NCBI GenBank assembly: GCA_945787125.1
Contig: CALZHW010000003.1
Coordinates: 4,094-68,093 of the forward strand
DNA length: 64,000 nucleotides
Source: an uncultured Ectothiorhodospiraceae bacterium
Lineage (GTDB): Bacteria; Pseudomonadota; Gammaproteobacteria; S012-40
Direction of reading: 5' to 3'
The notes beneath the pieces are model-generated. The model did not search any database. It saw only the letters and a program-made list of their open reading frames with translations, and was not told where the DNA came from. Positions within the stretch are counted from its first letter, which is position 1, and each line of letters starts with the position of its first letter. The position numbers and the translations under genes are program-made. Shown here piece after piece: positions 8,013 through 57,107 of this stretch.

Positions 8013-8471
8013 TTGATGAATTTTAATAAACATAACATAATGGCCTGGGTATTTATTGGCATATTGGTGCTTGTTTCAGCAGCTCACGCAGCGGGTGAAC
8101 ACAAAGATGCTCATACATCGGGGCATGATAATTCCACTGCCCAAAGCGGAATGTTTTTGCAGAAAATGACGGTTGATGGCTACGATGTTAGCTTTCACAT
8201 CATGAAAGCGAAAGAGGGCAAAGAGATGGGCGGCAGCCATGACCTCATGCTCAAGGTGGAACTCGGCGGTAAGGCGCTCACTGACATCGTTATGAATACC
8301 AAAGTCGTACTCCCCAATGGCAAAGCCGAAAGCAAAAAAGCCATGAAAATGGGTGATTGGCTAATGGCCGGTTATGACCTGGGGCACCCGGGTAAACATC
8401 AGGTGATGATTCTATTTAAAACCGCCGATGGCAAAAAACACAAGGGTGGGGTTTATTACGAAGACAAATGA
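8013..8471 (+). CDS. Secreted His/Met-rich putative metal-binding protein, uncharacterised family (paralog A1)
   Basis: Signal peptide, a His-rich N-terminus (HKDAHTSGHDNS), and a conserved core FHIMKAK...MKMGDWLMAGYDLGH..KHQ.MILFKTADGKKHKGGVYY. It is about 65% identical to ORF 15185..15655. Confidence 0.6.
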   Translation: MMNFNKHNIMAWVFIGILVLVSAAHAAGEHKDAHTSGHDNSTAQSGMFLQKMTVDGYDVSFHIMKAKEGKEMGGSHDLMLKVELGGKALTDIVMNTKVVLPNGKAESKKAMKMGDWLMAGYDLGHPGKHQVMILFKTADGKKHKGGVYYEDK

Positions 8472-10489: not shown

Positions 10490-11957
10490 GAGTACTGTAG
10501 CATTGGTCGTTGTTTTTGCTTTGGGTATTGGCTTTGGTGGAGGCTATTTTCTCTTCAGCCCAAATACCTCAGAGAAAATGGATGCAACGCAGAGCCAATC
10601 AGGCGAACGCAAGGTGCTGTTTTGGCGTAACCCCATGAATCCAGCCATTACCTCGCCGGTTTTCATGCAGGATGACATGGGCATGGATTACATCCCTGTC
10701 TACGCCGATGGAGAGAGGCCCAAAGAAAAAGAGGTGCTCTTTTATCGTAACCCCATGAACCCAGCTATTACCTCACCGGTATTTATGCAGGACGAAATGG
10801 GTATGGATTACATTCCCGTTTATGCCGACGGTGGTGCGGGAGATGAACTCGCTGGCACGGTTACAATTGATCCAGTCACAGTGCAAAATATTGGTGTACG
10901 TACAGCAGTTGCGGAAACCCGTGATTTATCACGGGCACTGAACGGCCTGGGGCGGGTTGATTTCAACGAAGAACGACTGGCCCGTTTGCATCCCAAGACC
11001 TCCGGTTGGATTGAACAATTAATGATTGATGAAACTGGCAAGCGAGTGAATAAAGACACCATCCTGCTTGGCATCTATTCCCCCGACTTGGTGGCTGCGC
11101 AGCAGGAGTATTTGGTGGCGCTTATTAACTGGGAAGCAGTGCGTGACAGCGCTGCTTCCCAAATGAACAAAAGTGCCAAAACCGTCCTGGAAAGCGCCCG
11201 TGAGCGCTTGCACTTATTTGATGTGGCGGAACATCAGATCAAAGAACTGGAAAAAAACCGAAAAATCAAAAAACAACTCCACATCCACTCTCCCTTTGAA
11301 GGTCAGATCATGCACATTGGTGCGAGGGAAGGGCAATATGTCACACCCAAAGACGAGCTTTATCTCATTGCTGACCTAAGTCGCATCTGGGTCAATGTGG
11401 ATATTTTTGAAGATGAATTAAGCTGGTTGAAGTTGGGTAATCGTGCCGAGATGCGCGTGCGTGCGCAACCGGGTCGAACCTATGAAGGCAAAATTACCTT
11501 TATTCATCCGATATTAAATCGTAAAAGCCGCTCAGTACAGGTACGTTTGGAATTCGACAACCGCGATCATTCACTCAAACCAGGCATGTTTGCCAACGTT
11601 ACACTCTATGTCGACCCTCAACCCAGTGCCGTGGTGGTGCCCAGCGAAGCGATTGTGCGTTCAGGCAGTCGCGAACAAGTGTTTGTCGTGCGTGAACCAG
11701 GCAAGTTTGAACCCCGTGAAGTGACACTGGGTGTGAGTGCTGAAGGTTTGACTCAAATCTTATCTGGTGTTGAGGCGGGAGAGCAGGTGGTGACCTCCAG
11801 CCAGTTCCTCATCGACTCCGAATCCAAGCTGCGTGAAGCCACGGCCAAGATGATGAAAGCGATGGCGGGTGAGGGTGACTCCGCTGGTATAGATATGTCG
11901 GACATGGAGATGGATGACATGGATATGGACGATGCATTGATGGAGGATCAACCATGA
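10482..11957 (+). CDS. RND periplasmic adaptor (membrane fusion protein, CusB/CzcB family) with a duplicated Met-rich N-terminal motif and a Met/Asp-rich C-terminal tail
   Basis: HlyD-like beta-barrel and lipoyl-like regions. The 33-aa motif LF(W/Y)RNPMNPAITSPVFMQD(D/E)MGMDYIPVYADG occurs twice. The C-terminus is MSDMEMDDMDMDD. The likely start, MNKSTV at 10482, overlaps the upstream stop. Confidence 0.8.
   Translation: MNKSTVALVVVFALGIGFGGGYFLFSPNTSEKMDATQSQSGERKVLFWRNPMNPAITSPVFMQDDMGMDYIPVYADGERPKEKEVLFYRNPMNPAITSPVFMQDEMGMDYIPVYADGGAGDELAGTVTIDPVTVQNIGVRTAVAETRDLSRALNGLGRVDFNEERLARLHPKTSGWIEQLMIDETGKRVNKDTILLGIYSPDLVAAQQEYLVALINWEAVRDSAASQMNKSAKTVLESARERLHLFDVAEHQIKELEKNRKIKKQLHIHSPFEGQIMHIGAREGQYVTPKDELYLIADLSRIWVNVDIFEDELSWLKLGNRAEMRVRAQPGRTYEGKITFIHPILNRKSRSVQVRLEFDNRDHSLKPGMFANVTLYVDPQPSAVVVPSEAIVRSGSREQVFVVREPGKFEPREVTLGVSAEGLTQILSGVEAGEQVVTSSQFLIDSESKLREATAKMMKAMAGEGDSAGIDMSDMEMDDMDMDDALMEDQP
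10611..10833 (+). repeat. Intragenic tandem duplication (about 102 bp x2, period 120 bp) encoding the duplicated Met-rich motif
   Basis: 10611..10712 and 10731..10833 are about 80% identical and in frame. Confidence 0.8.
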
Positions 11958-15184: not shown

Positions 15185-15655
15185 ATGAGAAAAGTAGTAA
15201 AACCTTTATCAGCGATCACCTTCGTCGCATTGTTAGCGGCAACAGGATCTTTGTACGCATCAGGTGATCACTCACAGGGTCACGATGATCATAATAAGTC
15301 TGAAATGAAACATGATAATCACGGCTCTACCATGGGAGAAATGTTTCTAAAGAAAACGGAGATCGATGGTTACGATGTTAGTTTTCATATCATGAAAGCC
15401 AAACCTGGCAAACAGATGGGTGGCACCCATGACTTTATGGTTAAAGTCGAAAAAGATGGAAAGGCACTTTCTAACATTGTTATGAATACGAAAGTTAAAC
15501 ACCCAAACGGCAAGTCGGAAAGTAAAAAAGCCATGAAGATGGGGGATTGGCTGATGGCAGGTTATGACTTGGGGCACGAAGGTAAACACCAGTTAATGAT
15601 TTTGTTTAAGACCGCTGATGGTAAGAAACACAAAGGCGGTGTTTATTATCCATAG
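15185..15655 (+). CDS. Secreted His/Met-rich putative metal-binding protein, uncharacterised family (paralog A2)
   Basis: Signal peptide, His-rich N-terminus (GDHSQGHDDHNKSEMKHDNHGS), and the same conserved core as ORF 8013. Confidence 0.6.
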   Translation: MRKVVKPLSAITFVALLAATGSLYASGDHSQGHDDHNKSEMKHDNHGSTMGEMFLKKTEIDGYDVSFHIMKAKPGKQMGGTHDFMVKVEKDGKALSNIVMNTKVKHPNGKSESKKAMKMGDWLMAGYDLGHEGKHQLMILFKTADGKKHKGGVYYP

Positions 15656-16498: not shown

Positions 16499-18943
16499 AT
16501 GAAAACCGATCCGGTTTGTGGCATGGACGTGGCGGATGATACTCGATATCACACGAATCACAATGAGCAGATGTTTTACTTTTGCAGTGAGCATTGTTTG
16601 CATAAATTTGAGACTGAGCCAGAAAAATATGTGCAGACCGAGTCGCTCACCGATCCAGTGTGCGGTATGAATGTCACTGAGGAGTCGGTGCATCACACTG
16701 AGCATAGGGGCAAAACACATTATTTTTGCAGTACAGGCTGTTTGAATAAGTTTTTGGCATCATCAGAACAATATCTTAGGGATGTTCACTCTCAACACGC
16801 CGTTCATGATAATAAGTCGGTGGATAAGTCCGCGATCTACACTTGCCCCATGCATCCTGAAATCGAACAGCAAGGCCCGGGCAGTTGTCCTAAGTGCGGT
16901 ATGGCGCTGGAACCGCGCACGGTCGAAGCCGATGAGGATACCAGCGAACTGGATGACATGACACGCCGTTTCTGGGTCAGCTCTCTACTGGCGATCCCGG
17001 TTTTTTTTAGCGCTATGGCTGCCGAGTTTTGGCCAGAGTTCATCAATGGCCTAATTTCACCGGTCGCACGGCAATGGGGCGAGCTCATTTTATCCGCTCC
17101 TGTAGTGTGGTGGGGTGGCTGGGTTTTCTTTCAACGCGGCTGGCAATCTATTGTCACTCGCAATCTTAATATGTTCACGTTAATAGCTGTCGGTGTTGGT
17201 ATTGCCTGGATTTACAGTCTTATTGCAGTACTGCTGCCGGGTATATTTCCGCCCGCTGTCTTTAGTGAGGCAGGAGTAGTTCCGGTCTATTTTGAAGCTG
17301 CCGCTGTGATTACCGCTCTCGTCCTGTTAGGGCAAGTAATGGAGCTGCGCGCTCGTAGCCAAACCAATGCTGCCATTAAACTTCTGCTTGGCCTGGCCCC
17401 AAAAGCAGCGCGTATTGTTCGTGAAGATGGCACGGAGGAAGATATTCCGTTGGAGCATGTTCAAGTTGGAGATCACTTACGTATTCGTCCCGGCGAAAAA
17501 ATACCTGTGGATGGTAATGTTATCAATGGTGAAAGTAATGTTGACGAATCCATGGTGACCGGTGAGCCAATTCCTGTCGCCAAGTCAGTGGGCGAGCGAC
17601 TAATCGGCGCTACCGTCAACGGTACAGGTGGCCTGTTGATGCGCGCCGAGAAAGTGGGTGCCGATACGTTGCTCGCACAGATCGTCAAAATGGTTGCTGA
17701 TGCGCAGCGCTCCCGCGCACCGATTCAAAAATTGGTGGATATTGTTGCCGGTTACTTCGTACCGACAGTGGTGGTCATCGCCGTTATTACCTTCATTGTT
17801 TGGAGTTTGTTTGGGCCGGAACCCGCTATTGCCTATGCCGTGATTAACGCCGTGGCGGTATTGATTATTGCCTGCCCTTGTGCGCTAGGTTTAGCCACTC
17901 CCATGTCCATCATGGTTGGTACCGGCAAAGGAGCGATGATGGGGGTGTTGATCAAAAATGCGGAGGCATTAGAGATTATGCAAAAGGTGGATACTCTGGT
18001 TGTGGACAAAACCGGTACGCTTACCGAAGGCAAACCAAAGCTGGTCTCGGTGTTTGCCAATGAAGATTTTAAAGAGAATGACAATCTGCGTCTGGCTGCC
18101 AGTTTAGAGCGAGCTAGCGAGCATCCGCTGGCGGAAGCGATTGTGAAAGGCGCTGAGGAACGTGGAATAGATTTGGCTCAAGCTCAAAACTTTCAATCAG
18201 TAACTGGCAAGGGTGTTACCGGAAATGTAGACGGAAGGGAAGTGGCCCTGGGAAATCTAAAATTACTTGAGAGTCTCGGTATTGATGCGGGTGGTTTGCC
18301 GCAACAAGCAGACAATCAACGTGCCGAAGGTCAGACCGTGATGTTGCTGGCGGTTGATGGTAAAGCCGCGGGTTTGATCGGTGTCGCCGATCCAATTAAA
18401 GAGAGCACACCGGAGGCGATCCGTAATTTACATGAGGAAGGTATCCGCGTGGTCATGCTCACCGGGGATAGTCGCAAGACCGCCGAAGCAGTCGCTGCTA
18501 AACTGGGTATTGATCAAGTACACGCCGAAGTGTTGCCAGAACAAAAAGCTGAAGTAGTAAAACAACTTCAGGCTGAAGGATTCATCGTCGCCATGGCGGG
18601 TGATGGTATCAATGATGCGCCTGCTTTGGCCCAGGCCCATGTGGGCATTGCCATGGGTACTGGTACTGATGTAGCCATGGAAAGCGCAGGTGTAACATTG
18701 GTCAAGGGTGATTTGCGAGGCATCGTACGTGCTGTGCGATTATCGCGCGCCACTATGCGCAACATTCGCCAAAACTTGTTCTTTGCCTTTATCTATAACG
18801 CCGCCGGAGTGCCAATAGCGGCGGGGGTGCTTTATCCCGTCTTCGGATTACTACTCTCTCCCATGATAGCGGCAGCAGCCATGAGCTTCAGTTCGGTATC
18901 AGTGATCACCAATGCCTTACGGTTGAGGCGAGTTAAATTATGA
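16499..18943 (+). CDS. copA: Copper(I)-translocating P1B-type ATPase with an N-terminus of two TRASH/YHS domains plus a CPMHPE..CPKCGM domain
   Basis: TRASH/YHS motifs CGMDV...FCSEHC and CGMNV...FCSTGC, then [22 protein letters not shown], then the CPC transduction motif, [15 protein letters not shown] and the HP motif. 814 aa. Confidence 0.9.
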
Positions 18944-18961
18944 ATTTTTCAAACTGGGGAG

Positions 18962-19648
18962 ATGCAACAAATGCATGGTGATACTGGGTATGCCTATGGT
19001 ATGTGGGTAGTAGCGGCTTTTAACATCGGCATTTTTCTGTTTTTCATTTTAAGTTTTCTCAAGCCGCGGGGCAGCGAGGAATGGCGCAGCATGGGGGTAG
19101 TAACTGCCTTTCTGGTGGCACTCTTCGCCGAGATGTATGGTTTTCCTTTAACGATTTATCTGCTTTCTGGCTGGTTAGGCGATGCCTACCCAGTGTTACA
19201 ACCCTTCAACCATAAATACGGTCACCTTTGGGTAGTGGTGTTTGGTGGCTCAACCCTGGCTTGGGCAATAGTGATGGGTTTGAGTCTGGGGTTTATGATA
19301 ATGGGCTATATGCTACTCTCGAAGGGCTGGACGCAGATCCACGCTGCTCAAGGTGGATTGGTTTCTAACGGAATCTATGCTTATGTGCGTCATCCTCAAT
19401 ACACAGGATTGTTCCTCGTTATTATCGGTTTTCTAATTCAGTGGCCCACGTTGCTCACCGTGATAATGGCTCCCATTCTTCTTTATGCTTATACACATTT
19501 AGCACGAGTCGAAGAAAAGCGTGCGGAGAAAGTATTTGGTGACGCATATATTAAATACGCAGACAAAACGCCTGCTTTTTTTCCACCACTAAATCAATGG
19601 CACGCATTTCTAACACTAGAGGTAGACAAATTAGATGAGAGAAAATAA
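18962..19648 (+). CDS. Isoprenylcysteine carboxyl methyltransferase (ICMT/PEMT) family membrane protein
   Basis: Multi-TM protein with the NGIYAYVRHPQYTG motif of the ICMT family. Confidence 0.65.
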   Translation: MQQMHGDTGYAYGMWVVAAFNIGIFLFFILSFLKPRGSEEWRSMGVVTAFLVALFAEMYGFPLTIYLLSGWLGDAYPVLQPFNHKYGHLWVVVFGGSTLAWAIVMGLSLGFMIMGYMLLSKGWTQIHAAQGGLVSNGIYAYVRHPQYTGLFLVIIGFLIQWPTLLTVIMAPILLYAYTHLARVEEKRAEKVFGDAYIKYADKTPAFFPPLNQWHAFLTLEVDKLDERK

Positions 19649-19991: not shown

Positions 19992-20030
19992 GGGTCCCCA
20001 ACAATATAGGGGTGTAAATGCCACACTTTG
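19992..20030. repeat. Left terminal inverted repeat of the Tn3-family element
   Basis: Matches the reverse complement of 25590..25629 except for one missing G at the outer tip. Confidence 0.8.
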
Positions 20031-20100
20031 CAATCTAACGTATTGTTTATAATAACAATACTTCAGGACTTTTTTATCGAACTCATGCATAGTAAGTCAC

Positions 20101-25395: not shown

Positions 25396-25589
25396 TTAAG
25401 TGAATGGGCAAAACTTGTTATCGACAAACTGCGAATGAGTACTGTGTCGACATTGCTGTCATTTGTAAATTTCAACGAAAAAATATTTTTTGAATTAATA
25501 GAAACTTATTGATGGATAATTATGCTTTTGGGCCTTGGATTTTGAAAAAAGTCTTATATATTTTTAACTGAAAACAATAAGTTAAATGC

Positions 25590-25629
25590 CAAAGTGTGGC
25601 ATTTACACCCCTATATTGTTGGGGACCCC
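25590..25629. repeat. Right terminal inverted repeat of the Tn3-family element
   Basis: Reverse complement of IR-L. The outer tip reads GGGGTCCCC. Confidence 0.8.
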
Positions 25630-25633
25630 ATGA

Positions 25634-25710
25634 ACTCCGCCGCAGCCATGAGCTTTAGTTCGGTGTCGGTGATTACCAATACATTGTGGTTGCGAGGCGT
25701 TAAATTGTAA
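25634..25710 (+). pseudogene. Fragment of a second copA 3' end (last about 25 codons), immediately outside IR-R
   Basis: atgaactccgccgcagccatgagctttagttcggtgtcggtgattaccaatacattgtggttgcgaggcgttaaattgtaa is about 80% identical to copA 18860..18943 (..[23 protein letters not shown]). The downstream 30 bp also resemble the copA-methyltransferase intergenic region. Confidence 0.6.
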
Positions 25711-25880
25711 GTTTTTTAACTTTGGGAGATACAACAAAGTTATTTCACAGCTTTCCGTAATTTGTGTAAAAAGGCTGCAAAGTAGTCTACTTGTTAAATT
25801 TTAGTAATGATAGGGGATTTGTACTGATTGTGGTTTATACTTACTTATAACAATTTATCCCACTTTCATATGGTAGGACT

Positions 25881-31212: not shown

Positions 31213-31336
31213 CGCGTTTTCCGTTGTTTGTTGGGCGAGGTAATACAAAATTAACTACCCACAGGTATTTAAGTCGTCAGGATTAAACTGATTAAGATGG
31301 GAATGACCACATGCTTTTGCCCTAACCTGCATTTAA

Positions 31337-31400
31337 CCTAGAATAATCAGTTGGCGCGAATTTTTAGTGCAAAATATTGAAGTGCATAGTGAATTCAAGA
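31337..31400. repeat. Partial copy (left ~64 bp) of the MITE-like element found complete at 51293..51454
   Basis: cctagaataatcagttggcgcgaatttttagtgcaaRatattgaagtgcatagYgaattcaaga is shared with 51293..51356. Homology stops abruptly at 31400. Confidence 0.7.
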
Positions 31401-31927
31401 GCTGCCAACACCTTCTCGCTCTCTTCCACCCGGCGGCAAAAAGGAATCATCAACTTCACATTCGTCAGCCCCATCTCGTCACGCACCCGTTTCATCGCCA
31501 CACACTCCAACGCAAACCCTTCGGCGTAAGCAAGATAGGTGTAACGGGAGGCACCGCGAAAACCGACCATCGGATTGTCTTCTTCCGGCTCGAAAAAAGT
31601 ACCGCCCAGCAAGGCGGCGTATTTGATTAGGCTTGAGTATTGTTGCTTGCTTCTGTTGTCATGGATTCCGATTGCGGCAAAGAGAGTGGCCGCGCTCATA
31701 AAGCTGTACCCAAGGATATCTACCGCGCACAGGAATGAATTGAACGGCACAAACAGAAACATCTCGATACCTTCACTCTGGCCGCGCGCAAGCCGAGGTA
31801 ACACAAGTGTGAGCTGAACAAAATAAACGATGCTGATCCAGACCGTGTAAACCGTGGCGAATGCGGCGTGGCTCCAGATTTTTCTCTCCGGCACCGAAAG
31901 TTGGAGGATATTGGCAGGTCTGGGCAA
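31364..31927 (-). pseudogene. Chimeric ORF: an internal fragment of phosphoenolpyruvate synthase (ppsA) fused to MITE-derived codons and an unrelated N-terminal segment
   Basis: Residues about 112-175 (NPMVGFRGASRYTYLAYAEGFALECVAMKRVRDEMGLTNVKLMIPFCRRVEESEKV) match the PpsA PEP-utilising region. The last 12 codons lie in the MITE copy and the N-terminal 110 aa are unrelated. Confidence 0.5.
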
Positions 31928-32188: not shown

Positions 32189-32669
32189 CGTGTCACTAGA
32201 AGATTCATAAGGTCTAGGCTAACACCTGGCCGGCGGGATATCTGTAACCTAGGTAGCAGTTAATGTGCAGTGCGTGTAGATGATGTCATGTGACAGGGGC
32301 CTGCTTCAGCCACCTGGGTTGCGCAATGCGAAATGCACTAGGATTCTGTCTGAGAATGGAAAGCTTACTCTTCGGGTCTGGCCAATGCAGAGGCGCTAGT
32401 GCTCTTATCGTTCCAGGCATTTAGACGGTGGTAATAGGCGAAGCAGGCCAGATGTACCAGCAGCTTGTTGAGGTGCGAACGCCATGCTAGCCCTCCCCTC
32501 GTCAAGAAACTACCAAGAAAACGTAAAGATTTTGTAAAGCAATACTCAGAAGACAACAAAACACACGATTTGTTTGGTATTATAAACACTCGCACTCATA
32601 ATCCTAGAAAACTCACTGCTCCAAGTGCAGGAGGTACGAGCCCATGAATAAATAATCTCTGGGGTCAGC

Positions 32670-34930: not shown

Positions 34931-35017
34931 GCCGAGGTGGCGGAATTGGTAGACGCGCTAGCTTCAGGTGCTAGTGGGGGTAACCCCGTGGAGGTTCGAG
35001 TCCTCTTCTCGGCACCA
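34931..35017 (+). tRNA. tRNA-Leu (anticodon CAG), class II with a long variable arm, CCA encoded
   Basis: gccgaggtggcggaattggtagacgcgctagcttCAGgtgctagtgggggtaaccccgtggaggttcgagtcctcttctcggcacca shows an acceptor stem (gccgagg/tctcggc), a D-arm, an anticodon loop ctCAGgt, a long variable arm, and a T-arm (ggttcgagtcc). Confidence 0.9.
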
Positions 35018-49152: not shown

Positions 49153-49332
49153 ACCTTCAATAGCTTAATTATTAAACCATAATACTGTAATGGAGTAATC
49201 CGTTTTATTTAAGTGAATATAACAGGATGATCAACTACGGCCGGGTTATCGAACTTGCAGTGCGATATATACACAATCGTCCAGCCACATACATCGCAGC
49301 ACTTGCCAATCCACAGGCTTTGGTGCAGTTTG

Positions 49333-49372
49333 CCATTCTCGGATAGGCTCCTAGGGGCCTGTCCGAGAATGG
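49333..49372. repeat. Back-to-back pair of the 22-bp MITE terminal repeats (a minimal or solo element forming a 40-bp palindrome)
   Basis: ccattctcggataggctcctag overlapping ctaggggcctgtccgagaatgg. Confidence 0.6.
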
Positions 49373-49840
49373 CAAACTGACTGAAAGACAGTTTCAAGGT
49401 TCGAATTATGTTGCTGGAAAATTGACGTGGCCAGTAATTACGGTTAATCTAAATTGATTATTAATCTCCCGAGTTGGTTCAACCCTCACCCAATAGGCGT
49501 CAATTGGTTGGTATTACTTATAAAAAATATTCACTATAGAGATTTTTTTATGACAGATTAATTGAACTGGTAGAACACGGTGAGGATTTCCGAAACAAGA
49601 GAAATAATTGTAGGATTACAAATTTTGCACCACTTTTTTCACTTCTGTGAGCGATATGCATTCACTTAAACGGCCTGGCAGTTTGCGTTTTAAAAATAAT
49701 CCATATTGATTTATCAGATTAAACAAAAACTTACAGCAGTGACAAGGACAAAGTCACGAATAAACAAGGAAAGTTTTAATAGCCGGAATTATTATTGCAG
49801 AATATAGATTACCGATGCTCAATTAAAGAAGATATTTATT

Positions 49841-50637: not shown

Positions 50638-51039
50638 AATACAATCCTCTGTAAATTTTATTCCTGAAGGGTTTAACTTTTTTCAATGATTTGTGAACGC
50701 ACACAATCTGAAAATAGTTGATGCTTAACTTATTCGTAAAATTCCATAAAAATAATAAGTAAGCGAATGTAAGTCTAATGTAATCGTTACCACTTGCAAA
50801 TAAAGAAAAATAATTATTGCACGGTTGTTATCAGTTAAATTTATGGAGAGGCAAAGAAAAGCTGATTTCGTCACCCTAGGCCGACATAAAACTCGTAACA
50901 TTTGTAAATTAATTTATTGCTGAGAAGATGTAAAAAAAATTCATTAATTAAGGTGTGACGGTTTACTAAATTTGCAGAAAGGAGAAAGGAGTTTTACAAA
51001 CTGATCATTTATCCATATTTATTTTATGAATTAGCTTTT

Positions 51040-51237
51040 AACTCACAATCGGAGTTCAACCTATTTCCCTTAATCAACGCTCGTAGTGGCAAGGCCTTAT
51101 CGAGAGTGTTGCCCTGTTGTGCCCACGGATGCTGCCGTCAAGACTACAGTGACGTATTTACGGCGTCTCTCGGTAAGGTTTGCTGCTATGGGTGCTGGAT
51201 GGTGGCACTATGCGACTTAGAACACCGATTGTGAGTT
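51040..51237. repeat. About 195-bp MITE-like or structured repeat, copy A (terminal inverted repeat AACTCACAATCGGAGTTC)
   Basis: About 85% identical to 56625..56815. Termini are aactcacaatcggagttc ... gaacaccgattgtgagtt. Confidence 0.7.
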
Positions 51238-51257
51238 TTTAAATATATTCGGGGGAT

Positions 51258-51287
51258 AAAAAAAGCCAGCGGTTAAGCTGGCTTTTG
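51258..51287. terminator. Bidirectional rho-independent terminator (A-tract, hairpin, T-tract)
   Basis: aaaaaa-gccagc-ggttaa-gctggc-tttt. It sits downstream of dnaJ (minus strand), separated from the dnaJ stop by the 160-bp MITE. Confidence 0.6.
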
Positions 51288-51292
51288 ATTAT

Positions 51293-51454
51293 CCTAGAAT
51301 AATCAGTTGGCGCGAATTTTTAGTGCAAGATATTGAAGTGCATAGCGAATTCAAGAAATGCATGGTCACCTTATTGGTGATCTGCATATTTTTGAATTTG
51401 CTAGGTGCATCAAGAGCTTGTGCTAAAAATCGTGGTTCAACTGATTAATCTAGG
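51293..51454. mobile_element. MITE-like element (about 162 bp) with 17-bp terminal inverted repeats CCTAGAATAATCAGTTG, inserted between the dnaJ stop and its terminator
   Basis: cctagaataatcagttg at 51293 and caactgattaatctagg at 51438..51454 (1 mismatch). A partial second copy lies at 31337..31400. Confidence 0.65.
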
Positions 51455-51455
51455 A

Positions 51456-52592
51456 TTATGCTTTCATATCATCAAAAAAACTTTTTACTTTACCTAGCCA
51501 GGAGTGTGACTGTGGGCTGTGTTTCGATCCGCTGAGAGAATCATTGAATTGTCGTAATAACTCTTTTTGTTCTTCATTCAGGTGCACAGGAGTCTCTATG
51601 TTGGCTTTGCAGTATAAATCACCAATACCACCGCCACGCACGGGTTTAACGCCTTTACCTTTTATACGAAACATTTTGCCGGTTTGTGTTTCACCTGGGA
51701 TTTTTAATTTAACCCGGCCGTTTAAAGTCGGCACTTCCAGTTCGCCGCCCAGCGTCGCTGTAGCAAATGAAACAGGCACTTCACAGTAGAGGTTGGCATC
51801 ATCACGGACAAATATGGGGTGTTCTTTCACATTTATATTGATATACAAATCGCCGGGAGGTCCACCATTTTCTCCTGCTTCACCCTCACCGCCTAAGCGT
51901 ATGCGATCACCTGTATCAACGCCTGCTGGGATTTTTGCTGATAAAGTCTTATGCTCTTTAACCCGTCCTTGTCCATGGCAGGTATTACATGCATCAGTGA
52001 TGATCTCACCTTTGCCATGACAGCTCGGACAAGTTTGCTGAATAGAAAAAAAGCCTTGTTGCATACGAACCTGACCGTGACCAGCGCAGGTGCTGCAGGT
52101 GCTTGGTTTGCTGCCTTTCTTGGCGCCTGAACCATTGCACGTTTTACACTGAACATAAGTTGGTACACGTATTTTAACTTCTGTACCGGCAACCGCTTCT
52201 TCCAGAGAAATATCTAAATTATAACGCAAATCATCGCCACGATGAGCTCCCCCTGCACCGCCGCCAGCACGTCCACCAGTGAATATGTCTCCAAATATGT
52301 CACCGAAGACATCGCTAAAACCACCGCCGGCAAATCCACCAGCACCGGCTCCGCCACCTCTTGAAGGGTCTACCCCGGCATGACCAAATTGATCATAGGC
52401 CGCGCGTTTTTGAGCGTCACTCAAAATATCGTAAGCTTCTTTGATCTCTTTAAATTTTGCTTCAGCACCTTCATCATCAGGATTTCTATCCGGATGAAAC
52501 TTCATTGCCAGTTTTCGATAAGCCTTTTTTAAGTCTGTATCGCTCACATTTTTGCTGACGCCAAGTATTTCGTAATAATCCCGATTAGCCAT
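51456..52592 (-). CDS. dnaJ: Chaperone DnaJ
   Basis: J-domain (YYEILGV...HPD), G/F-rich region, and four CxxCxGxG zinc-finger repeats. The start is taken at [11 protein letters not shown]. Confidence 0.9.
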
Positions 52593-56538: not shown

Positions 56539-56624
56539 TTATGCACAACAGTAAAAGTCATTTATCGAATCAAGTCATATGTTTAGGAGTAAGTGTCGTT
56601 GGAACATATTTTCGCATAGTTAGA

Positions 56625-56815
56625 AACTCACAATCGGAGTTCAAACTATTTCCCGTAATCAGCGCTCGTAGTGGCAAGGCCCTATCGAGAGTGTTAGCAG
56701 CATGGATGCTGCCGCCAAGCCTACAGAGACGTATTCACGGCGTCTCTCGATAAGGTTTTACCGCTAGGGGTGCTGGAAGGTGGCAATTGGCAACTTCGAA
56801 CTCCGATTGTGAGTT
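56625..56815. repeat. About 190-bp MITE-like or structured repeat, copy B
   Basis: Same termini and internal stems as 51040..51237. Located between hrcA and nadK. Confidence 0.7.
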
Positions 56816-57107
56816 AGAAATTATCACTTAAGCCTATAGTAATGGCAAATAAATAACCACTGACGCTGCGTTTTTGCGTAAGTTATGGAGTCACTAAACC
56901 ACTAAGCCTGTTGTAAACGACTTATTTTTCGTACCAATTACTTGTTTTTACGCTATTTTTTACGTTTTGTTGGCTTGGATTGTTGCAGATTACGTGCTAC
57001 CTTTCCAATCTAACCGAATAAGCGACCCCCAATCTGACCATCAGTTGGCACCCAGGATGAGCCCGGCTCGCATTTCTGCCTATCAGCCACAACCCGAGAC
57101 CCGATTA

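Follow-up and report, generated by a model that had tools for sequence, protein, structure and literature searches.

Two spacers of an uncultured Ectothiorhodospiraceae bacterium, lying on either side of the heat-shock operon hrcA-grpE-dnaK-dnaJ, each contain one copy of a short element. With a probability of about 0.8, we assign both copies to a MITE that has not been described before and is low in copy number; they would be old, and would have been mobilised in trans by a DDE transposase encoded elsewhere. The analysis was performed on a stretch of 64,000 nucleotides, referred to below as the window. A preliminary description of the element had left a choice between a MITE hairpin and a small structured RNA. 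Several observations favour the first option: both copies have terminal inverted repeats (TIRs) and a separate 3-bp duplication, they lack an ORF, they are found in AT-rich spacers, and relatives do not have the element.

Anatomy of the element

The preliminary description had reported an element of ~195 bp in two copies, ~85% identical, and this was confirmed. Copies A and B (Table 1) have the same orientation and are 83.4% identical over 199 columns (blastn, E = 2e-56), or ~87% once 9 gap columns are left out. The 33 differing columns consist of 10 transitions, 14 transversions and the 9 gap columns, eight of which represent a single indel close to the apex. The G+C content of the copies is 50.5-51.3%, compared with 43.5% for the whole window, and both are situated in AT-rich spacers.

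The 18-bp TIRs that had been said to bound both copies are present at all four termini, one of which has a single mismatch. With up to 3 mismatches allowed, the 18-mer AACTCACAATCGGAGTTC occurs four times in the window, at precisely the four element termini, where shuffled sequences lead one to expect 0.04 occurrences. The left TIR is followed by an unpaired A/T-rich stretch of 17 nt, and then by a long, imperfect inner stem in which columns 36-70 pair with columns 124-159, and whose core in copy B is a perfect 9-bp helix (TATCGAGAG/CTCTCGATA). The apex is variable and carries the 8-nt indel, and a small side hairpin precedes the right TIR. Taken alone, the inner part also forms an imperfect palindrome. 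Neither copy has any coding capacity: in a six-frame translation every frame was interrupted or had no start, and no protein homologues were found among 5.8e9 protein clusters, either for the longest frame or for the six concatenated frames of both copies.

Table 1. Positions of the two copies, their termini and flanking duplications, and of predicted transcription signals in the neighbourhood (window coordinates; the duplications were read from the sequence)
Feature	Position	Strand	Remarks
Copy A	51040..51237	+	198 nt, 50.5% G+C; recovered by the covariance model and nhmmer as one of only two copies
Copy A, left TIR	51040..51057	+	AACTCACAATCGGAGTTC; 0 mismatches
Copy A, right TIR	51220..51237	-	1 mismatch (17/18)
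Copy A, left target-site duplication	51037..51039		TTT
Copy A, right target-site duplication	51238..51240		TTT
Copy B	56625..56815	+	191 nt, 51.3% G+C
Copy B, left TIR	56625..56642	+	0 mismatches
Copy B, right TIR	56798..56815	-	0 mismatches (18/18)
Copy B, left target-site duplication	56622..56624		AGA
Copy B, right target-site duplication	56816..56818		AGA
Terminator-like hairpin with U-run, downstream of dnaJ	51258..51290	-	-23.1 kcal/mol, z = -6.7; GCCAGC-UUAACC-GCUGGC, then UUUUUUU
Sigma-70-like promoter facing hrcA	56820..56848	-	TTGCCA-17-GATAAT; 10/12 consensus match only; putative function
Possible outward hybrid promoter facing the EF-hand gene	51021..51048	-	-35 TTGTGA inside the left TIR of copy A, -10 TAAAAT in the flank; 9/12

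Target-site duplications

Each copy is flanked by a 3-bp duplication of its own, a hallmark of transposition on two separate occasions. Since the duplications differ between copies A and B, they are not part of the element, and since the flanks differ as well, the copies result from two separate insertions and not from a segmental duplication. From the base composition, we estimate the probability of both 3-bp flanks matching by chance at ~3-6e-4. The length of the duplication is ambiguous, because the terminal AA...TT may be counted as part of the element or as part of the target: it may be 3 bp, 5 bp (TTTTA; TAGAA) or 7 bp (6/7 matching at copy A, and TTAGAAA with 7/7 at copy B). The last case corresponds to an element proper of the form CTCAC...GTGAG, with TTAGAAA at 56620-56626 and 56814-56820.

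These duplications also bear on the possibility that the element is a palindromic repeat of the REP/ERIC type, not a transposon but a sequence spread by recombination or by a REP-associated tyrosine transposase (RAYT) instead of a DDE transposase, or that an internal deletion at each site left behind only two insertion-sequence ends. We regard both variants as unlikely. Other small repeat families do exist in the window, namely a 40+40-nt perfect-type palindrome at 49313-49392 and a repeat of 75 nt with copies at 31333 and 51289, and the imperfect palindrome in the inner part of the element recalls ERIC. However, REP sequences are 20-40 nt long and come without target duplications, and the clean, differing 3-bp duplications observed here fit staggered-cut transposition. 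The ERIC/IRU elements of Enterobacteriaceae and Vibrio are comparable in that they are imperfect palindromes over their full length of 100-200 nt (~127 bp for ERIC) and occur in intergenic regions that are transcribed, where they can affect the stability of mRNA. Nevertheless, our element is distinguished from them by its sharp 18-bp TIRs and its target duplications, and blastn gave no match to it in plasmids, in phages or in 5,426 genomes of E. coli, where ERIC occurs. As for the deletion remnant, the internal sequence is common to both copies along their whole length, and they therefore cannot be independent remnants of this kind.

Distribution of the element

A search of the genome for more copies had been suggested in the preliminary description. 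It ended with only two, a count that refers to the contig of ~72 kb (MAG GCA_945787865.1) of which the window, in reverse complement, makes up most, with none in the 6.6 kb outside the window. No further copies were detected by blastn (word size 7), nhmmer --max or a covariance model in a total of 151 kb, which comprised the window, the remainder of its contig and eight loci of relatives. Both known copies are within 5.6 kb of each other. The region is carried by three MAGs, which are 100% identical to each other and therefore provide no data on within-species polymorphism. The short-read assemblies of these MAGs pass straight through both copies, and the assembly of MAG GCA_945786995.1 breaks at window positions 51292-51459, an interval that spans a different, 75-nt repeat and not the element. 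That the assemblies pass through both copies and break elsewhere argues against many near-identical copies.

A search of the 5.8e9 protein clusters with HrcA gave a closest match of 79% identity, the named matches being "Gammaproteobacteria bacterium". The gene order recN-nadK / hrcA-grpE-dnaK-dnaJ is found again in five relatives whose HrcA is 68-77% identical, and these are without the element; in four of the five the nadK-hrcA spacer is 317-355 bp long, compared with 569 bp here. When copy B and one duplication were removed and the result was aligned to the relatives, the divergence of the hrcA-proximal spacer was too great to define an empty site to the base. Absence from related genomes had been named beforehand as an observation that would count against the preliminary description. 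Having been observed in all five relatives, it speaks for the MITE part of that description and not for the structured RNA part. Lineage restriction is in fact the norm for MITEs, since 97.4% of them were genus-specific in a census of 183,232 genomes (PMC11602168).

The exact terminus was also scanned for in 185,579 GTDB species genomes, in JGI metagenomes and in IMG/VR. The only matches were singletons, each within an unrelated gene and no more numerous than chance predicts; these scans cover exact matches, so that variant termini are missed, and collections to which the host genome itself does not belong. Matches of the terminus extending over 20-25 nt were rejected, as they came from the same unrelated coding genes sampled repeatedly. 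A scan of IMG/VR with an internal 18-mer likewise returned chance singletons only. Neither the exact-terminus scans nor the plasmid collection yielded an insertion sequence whose ends match those of the element, and a full-text search of the literature for the terminus sequence produced nothing except unrelated primer strings.

Secondary structure and the differences between the copies

The preliminary description had further claimed that the differences between the copies include paired changes which preserve the stems, and had argued from these for a selected secondary structure. The pair counts do not bear this out. When the two copies were folded together with RNAalifold, the plus strand gave 58 consensus pairs, of which none had a compensatory change and 3 were altered on one side, and the minus strand gave 55 pairs with 0 compensatory changes, counts of low power given that they come from two sequences only. 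Most differences in the stems break pairs: in the minimum-energy fold of copy A, 13 of the 16 altered pairs are broken in copy B, and in that of copy B, 9 of the 13 altered pairs are broken in copy A. In the example that had been put forward, the T>C change leaves copy B with a C·A mismatch where copy A has a U-A pair, and the G>A change falls at another pair, where U·G becomes U-A. The pattern of differences between the copies, which also includes 14 transversions to 10 transitions, is that of neutral decay, with no constraint on pairing.

The fold itself is nonetheless what could be put forward for a functional structured RNA, or for a strand-specific structure of single-stranded DNA, with the hairpin under selection on the plus strand; this could be an sRNA gene or a cis-regulatory leader of the heat-shock genes. 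Compared with shuffled sequences the fold is very stable, reaching -84.9 kcal/mol (z = -5.8) on the plus strand of copy A and -94.0 kcal/mol (z = -8.6) on that of copy B; the minus strands reach -62.8 and -87.8 kcal/mol, respectively. With the TIRs removed, the inner region still exceeds the shuffles on the plus strand in both copies, with z = -3.2 in copy A (0.0 on the minus strand) and z = -5.0 in copy B (-4.1 on the minus strand). The consensus fold contains 8 G·U pairs common to both copies on the plus strand, and none on the minus strand. Paired columns are also somewhat less often affected by differences between the copies (Fisher p = 0.04 and 0.0004), though in part because the termini are invariant, as a transposase would require in any case.

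Despite these features, we find a functional RNA or single-stranded DNA structure quite unlikely. Besides the absence of compensatory changes and the prevalence of pair-breaking ones, the 8 shared G·U pairs were inherited from a single ancestor and therefore count as one observation. Neither copy is bracketed by a promoter or a terminator on the plus strand, and at both sites the strand expected to be transcribed is the minus strand. The element is missing in relatives that keep the same operon, and the separate target-site duplications point to mobility and not to a vertically inherited gene. A comparison with Rfam, which the preliminary description had recommended, gave no family at gathering score in either copy. 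Under permissive settings there were weak partial overlaps below threshold, with SNORA26 (E = 4.1) touching copy A and Ysr224 (E = 0.18; 18 bits, with a gathering score of 70) inside copy B. A tRNA gene at 34931-35014 on the plus strand (51.6 bits) is the sole Rfam match at gathering score in the window.

The bias of the inner hairpin towards the plus strand should not arise from pure decay at the DNA level, in which G·T and A·C oppositions would be equally frequent. It could be accommodated by a mobile unit that relies on a strand-specific single-stranded fold. The plus-strand hairpin with its 8 conserved G·U (or G·T) pairs would then be the active form, serving as an RNA with a regulatory or antisense role, or as an intermediate of single-stranded DNA for an unconventional recombinase, and the insertions bracketing hrcA-grpE-dnaK-dnaJ would have been kept for modulating heat-shock expression. 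We hold such a scenario to be very improbable, and the strand bias of the wobble pairs would be of importance only if many more copies showed it.

Genomic context

According to Pfam, recN and nadK are encoded on the plus strand, and hrcA-grpE-dnaK-dnaJ, followed by a small gene for an EF-hand protein of 85 aa, on the minus strand. Copy A is located between dnaJ and the EF-hand gene, ~400 nt upstream of the latter, and copy B in the divergent nadK-hrcA spacer. A strong terminator-like hairpin separates dnaJ from copy A, which is situated 20 nt beyond it. The possible hybrid promoter at the other end of copy A is weak, in that shuffled sequences predict as many such sites as the region contains. 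At copy B, the predicted sigma-70-like promoter ends 4 nt from the element, and therefore the predicted hrcA start falls on the first bases of the TIR. The hrcA mRNA would start with the whole of copy B as a 5' hairpin, 86 nt before the start codon.

It had been proposed that both copies are close to genes regulated by sigma32 and HrcA. The gene context was indeed as described, but the regulatory link that it implied found no support. There is no CIRCE operator in the window at up to 3 mismatches, and hence no direct tie of the element to HrcA. Moreover, the functional positions of the copies differ, copy B being in the hrcA leader and copy A downstream of the dnaJ terminator, and they have no regulatory feature in common. 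The heat-shock location of the copies is most likely incidental, since spacers tolerate insertions.

The two direct-oriented copies do bracket the whole operon, with copy B just upstream of hrcA and copy A past the dnaJ terminator, as would the ends of a composite mobile unit carrying hrcA-grpE-dnaK-dnaJ, but this is extremely improbable: each copy has its own matching duplication (TTT/TTT, AGA/AGA) and the outer flanks share none, a pattern that speaks strongly against a composite transposon and means that the copies were inserted singly, and the gene order is the same in relatives without the element, so that the operon is native to this position.

Two further identities were considered and rejected. 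Integron attC sites are imperfect palindromes of 57-141 bp with a core GTTRRRY and an inverse core RYYYAAC, situated beside cassette ORFs. The right junctions of our element, GTTTTTA in copy A and GTTAGAA in copy B, do not fit GTTRRRY, its 191-198 bp are too long, and there is no integrase or cassette context. In retrons, the inverted repeats a1/a2 enclose the structured msr-msd ncRNA directly upstream of a reverse transcriptase gene. No reverse transcriptase domain was found among the Pfam neighbours of the element, and the flanking genes are housekeeping or signalling genes.

Some features of the surrounding spacers were recorded in the comparison with relatives. A block of ~75 nt upstream of nadK (56930-57005; …CCAATTACTTGTTTTTACGCT…TTGGATTGTTGCAGATTACGTGCTACCTTTC) is conserved in all relatives examined, the remaining spacer having diverged, and it is probably the nadK-recN promoter or operator and not a CIRCE element. 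The relative GCA_026991625.1 has a canonical sigma-32 promoter upstream of hrcA, CTTGAA...CCCCATTT (CTTGAATCC…CCCCATTTAT; ~880-915 of the compared locus). At the corresponding position, the genome studied here has the sigma-70-like TTGCCA-17-GATAAT, directly followed by the element.

A probable MITE and its proposed mobilisation in trans

Prokaryotic MITEs are defined as elements of less than 500 bp with TIRs of 4-30 bp and flanking direct repeats, found in AT-rich intergenic targets and giving rise to stable stem-loop transcripts (PMC10969869). With 198 and 191 bp, well below ~500 bp, no ORF, an 18-bp TIR within the range of 4-30 bp and copy-specific duplications, the two copies correspond to this definition. 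Described examples such as QMITE1/2 of Coxiella and MITEAba12 of Acinetobacter (PMC10969869) resemble our element in length, TIRs, direct repeats, lack of an ORF, AT-rich intergenic targets, a predicted stable stem-loop transcript and lineage restriction. In contrast to these, our element has two copies, no partner insertion sequence that could be found, a G+C content above that of the host DNA, and no sequence similarity to those that were searched. We count five points against a MITE: only two copies are known, the collections scanned contain no partner insertion sequence, the relatives have diverged too far to show a base-exact empty site, the element is not AT-rich as MITEs typically are, and the inner hairpin is strand-biased.

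We propose that a DDE-type transposase from a related insertion sequence elsewhere would bind the 18-bp TIRs, excise the element and insert it into an AT-rich target by a staggered cut. Repair of this cut would leave the short direct duplication, of 3 bp if the AA/TT belong to the element, and otherwise of 5 or 7 bp. The two copies would have been inserted independently and would then have diverged by 17% without constraint on pairing. They are probably old, inactive members of a low-copy family confined to this lineage. MITEs are present in more than half of prokaryotic genomes, and one more lineage-specific family in such a widespread class changes little. The element does, however, explain the long spacers around the heat-shock operon, and it cautions annotators against calling an sRNA there.

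The position of copy B may be of more consequence. Correia elements (CREE/NEMIS) measure 100-155 bp, number in the hundreds, and have TIRs of 26 bp and a TA duplication. In Neisseria, these hairpin MITEs are often placed between a promoter and a start codon, the helix that their TIRs form in the mRNA is cut by RNase III, and the ends can supply promoter boxes (PMC10969869). Copy B is placed likewise in the hrcA leader, and the TIR of our element contains TTGTGA and TTGAAC, facing outward like -35 boxes, with putative promoter activity. It differs from Correia elements in its unrelated sequence, its duplication and its low copy number. If the predicted start is correct, the hrcA-grpE-dnaK-dnaJ mRNA would open with a hairpin of ~-88 kcal/mol, closed by a helix of 18-21 bp. 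The hairpin of copy B could then stabilise the 5' end of the mRNA or attract RNase III, as for Correia elements. A MITE that coincides precisely with the predicted start of hrcA transcription could change how stable the mRNA of the cell's main chaperone operon is, or how it is processed.

Other repeats and features of the window

The window contains at least two repeat families besides the one described above. A direct repeat of 73-75 nt, 93% identical, is found at 31333-31405, where it overlaps the 3' end of an ORF on the minus strand (31364-31927), and at 51289-51361, between the dnaJ stop and the terminator hairpin, adjoining copy A. The break in the assembly of GCA_945786995.1 over the latter suggests that more copies of the 75-nt repeat exist elsewhere in the genome. 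A third family is represented by a REP-like palindrome at 49313-49392, with arms of 40 nt and no spacer (…GCAGTTTGCCATTCTCGGATAGGCTCCTAG directly followed by GGGCCTGTCCGAGAATGGCAAACTG…), which has half-length relatives in two other spacers, at 32338-32370 and 42066-42098. Contigs from two other MAGs of the same population end at one and the same point, equivalent to window position 65827 and ~1.8 kb past the right end of the window. This point lies in a spacer with a hairpin-forming sequence (…ggaacgtgcacgaaataatttcgtgcaggttcc…; ~590-712 of the compared locus), suggesting another assembly-breaking repeat.

At a larger scale, inverted repeats of 84 nt (19992-20075 and 25545-25628) enclose a segment of 5.5 kb with an RND pump ORF, and direct repeats of 78% identity are found near this segment (8150-8449 with 15340-15639; 18860-18971 with 25627-25738; 10612-10831). 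In all, the window encodes four RND-type efflux pump ORFs of ~1020-1064 aa, together with CusB/CzcB-like and OEP partners and a CusS/CusR-like two-component pair. The RND ORFs with their partners look like a set of paralogous metal-efflux cassettes.
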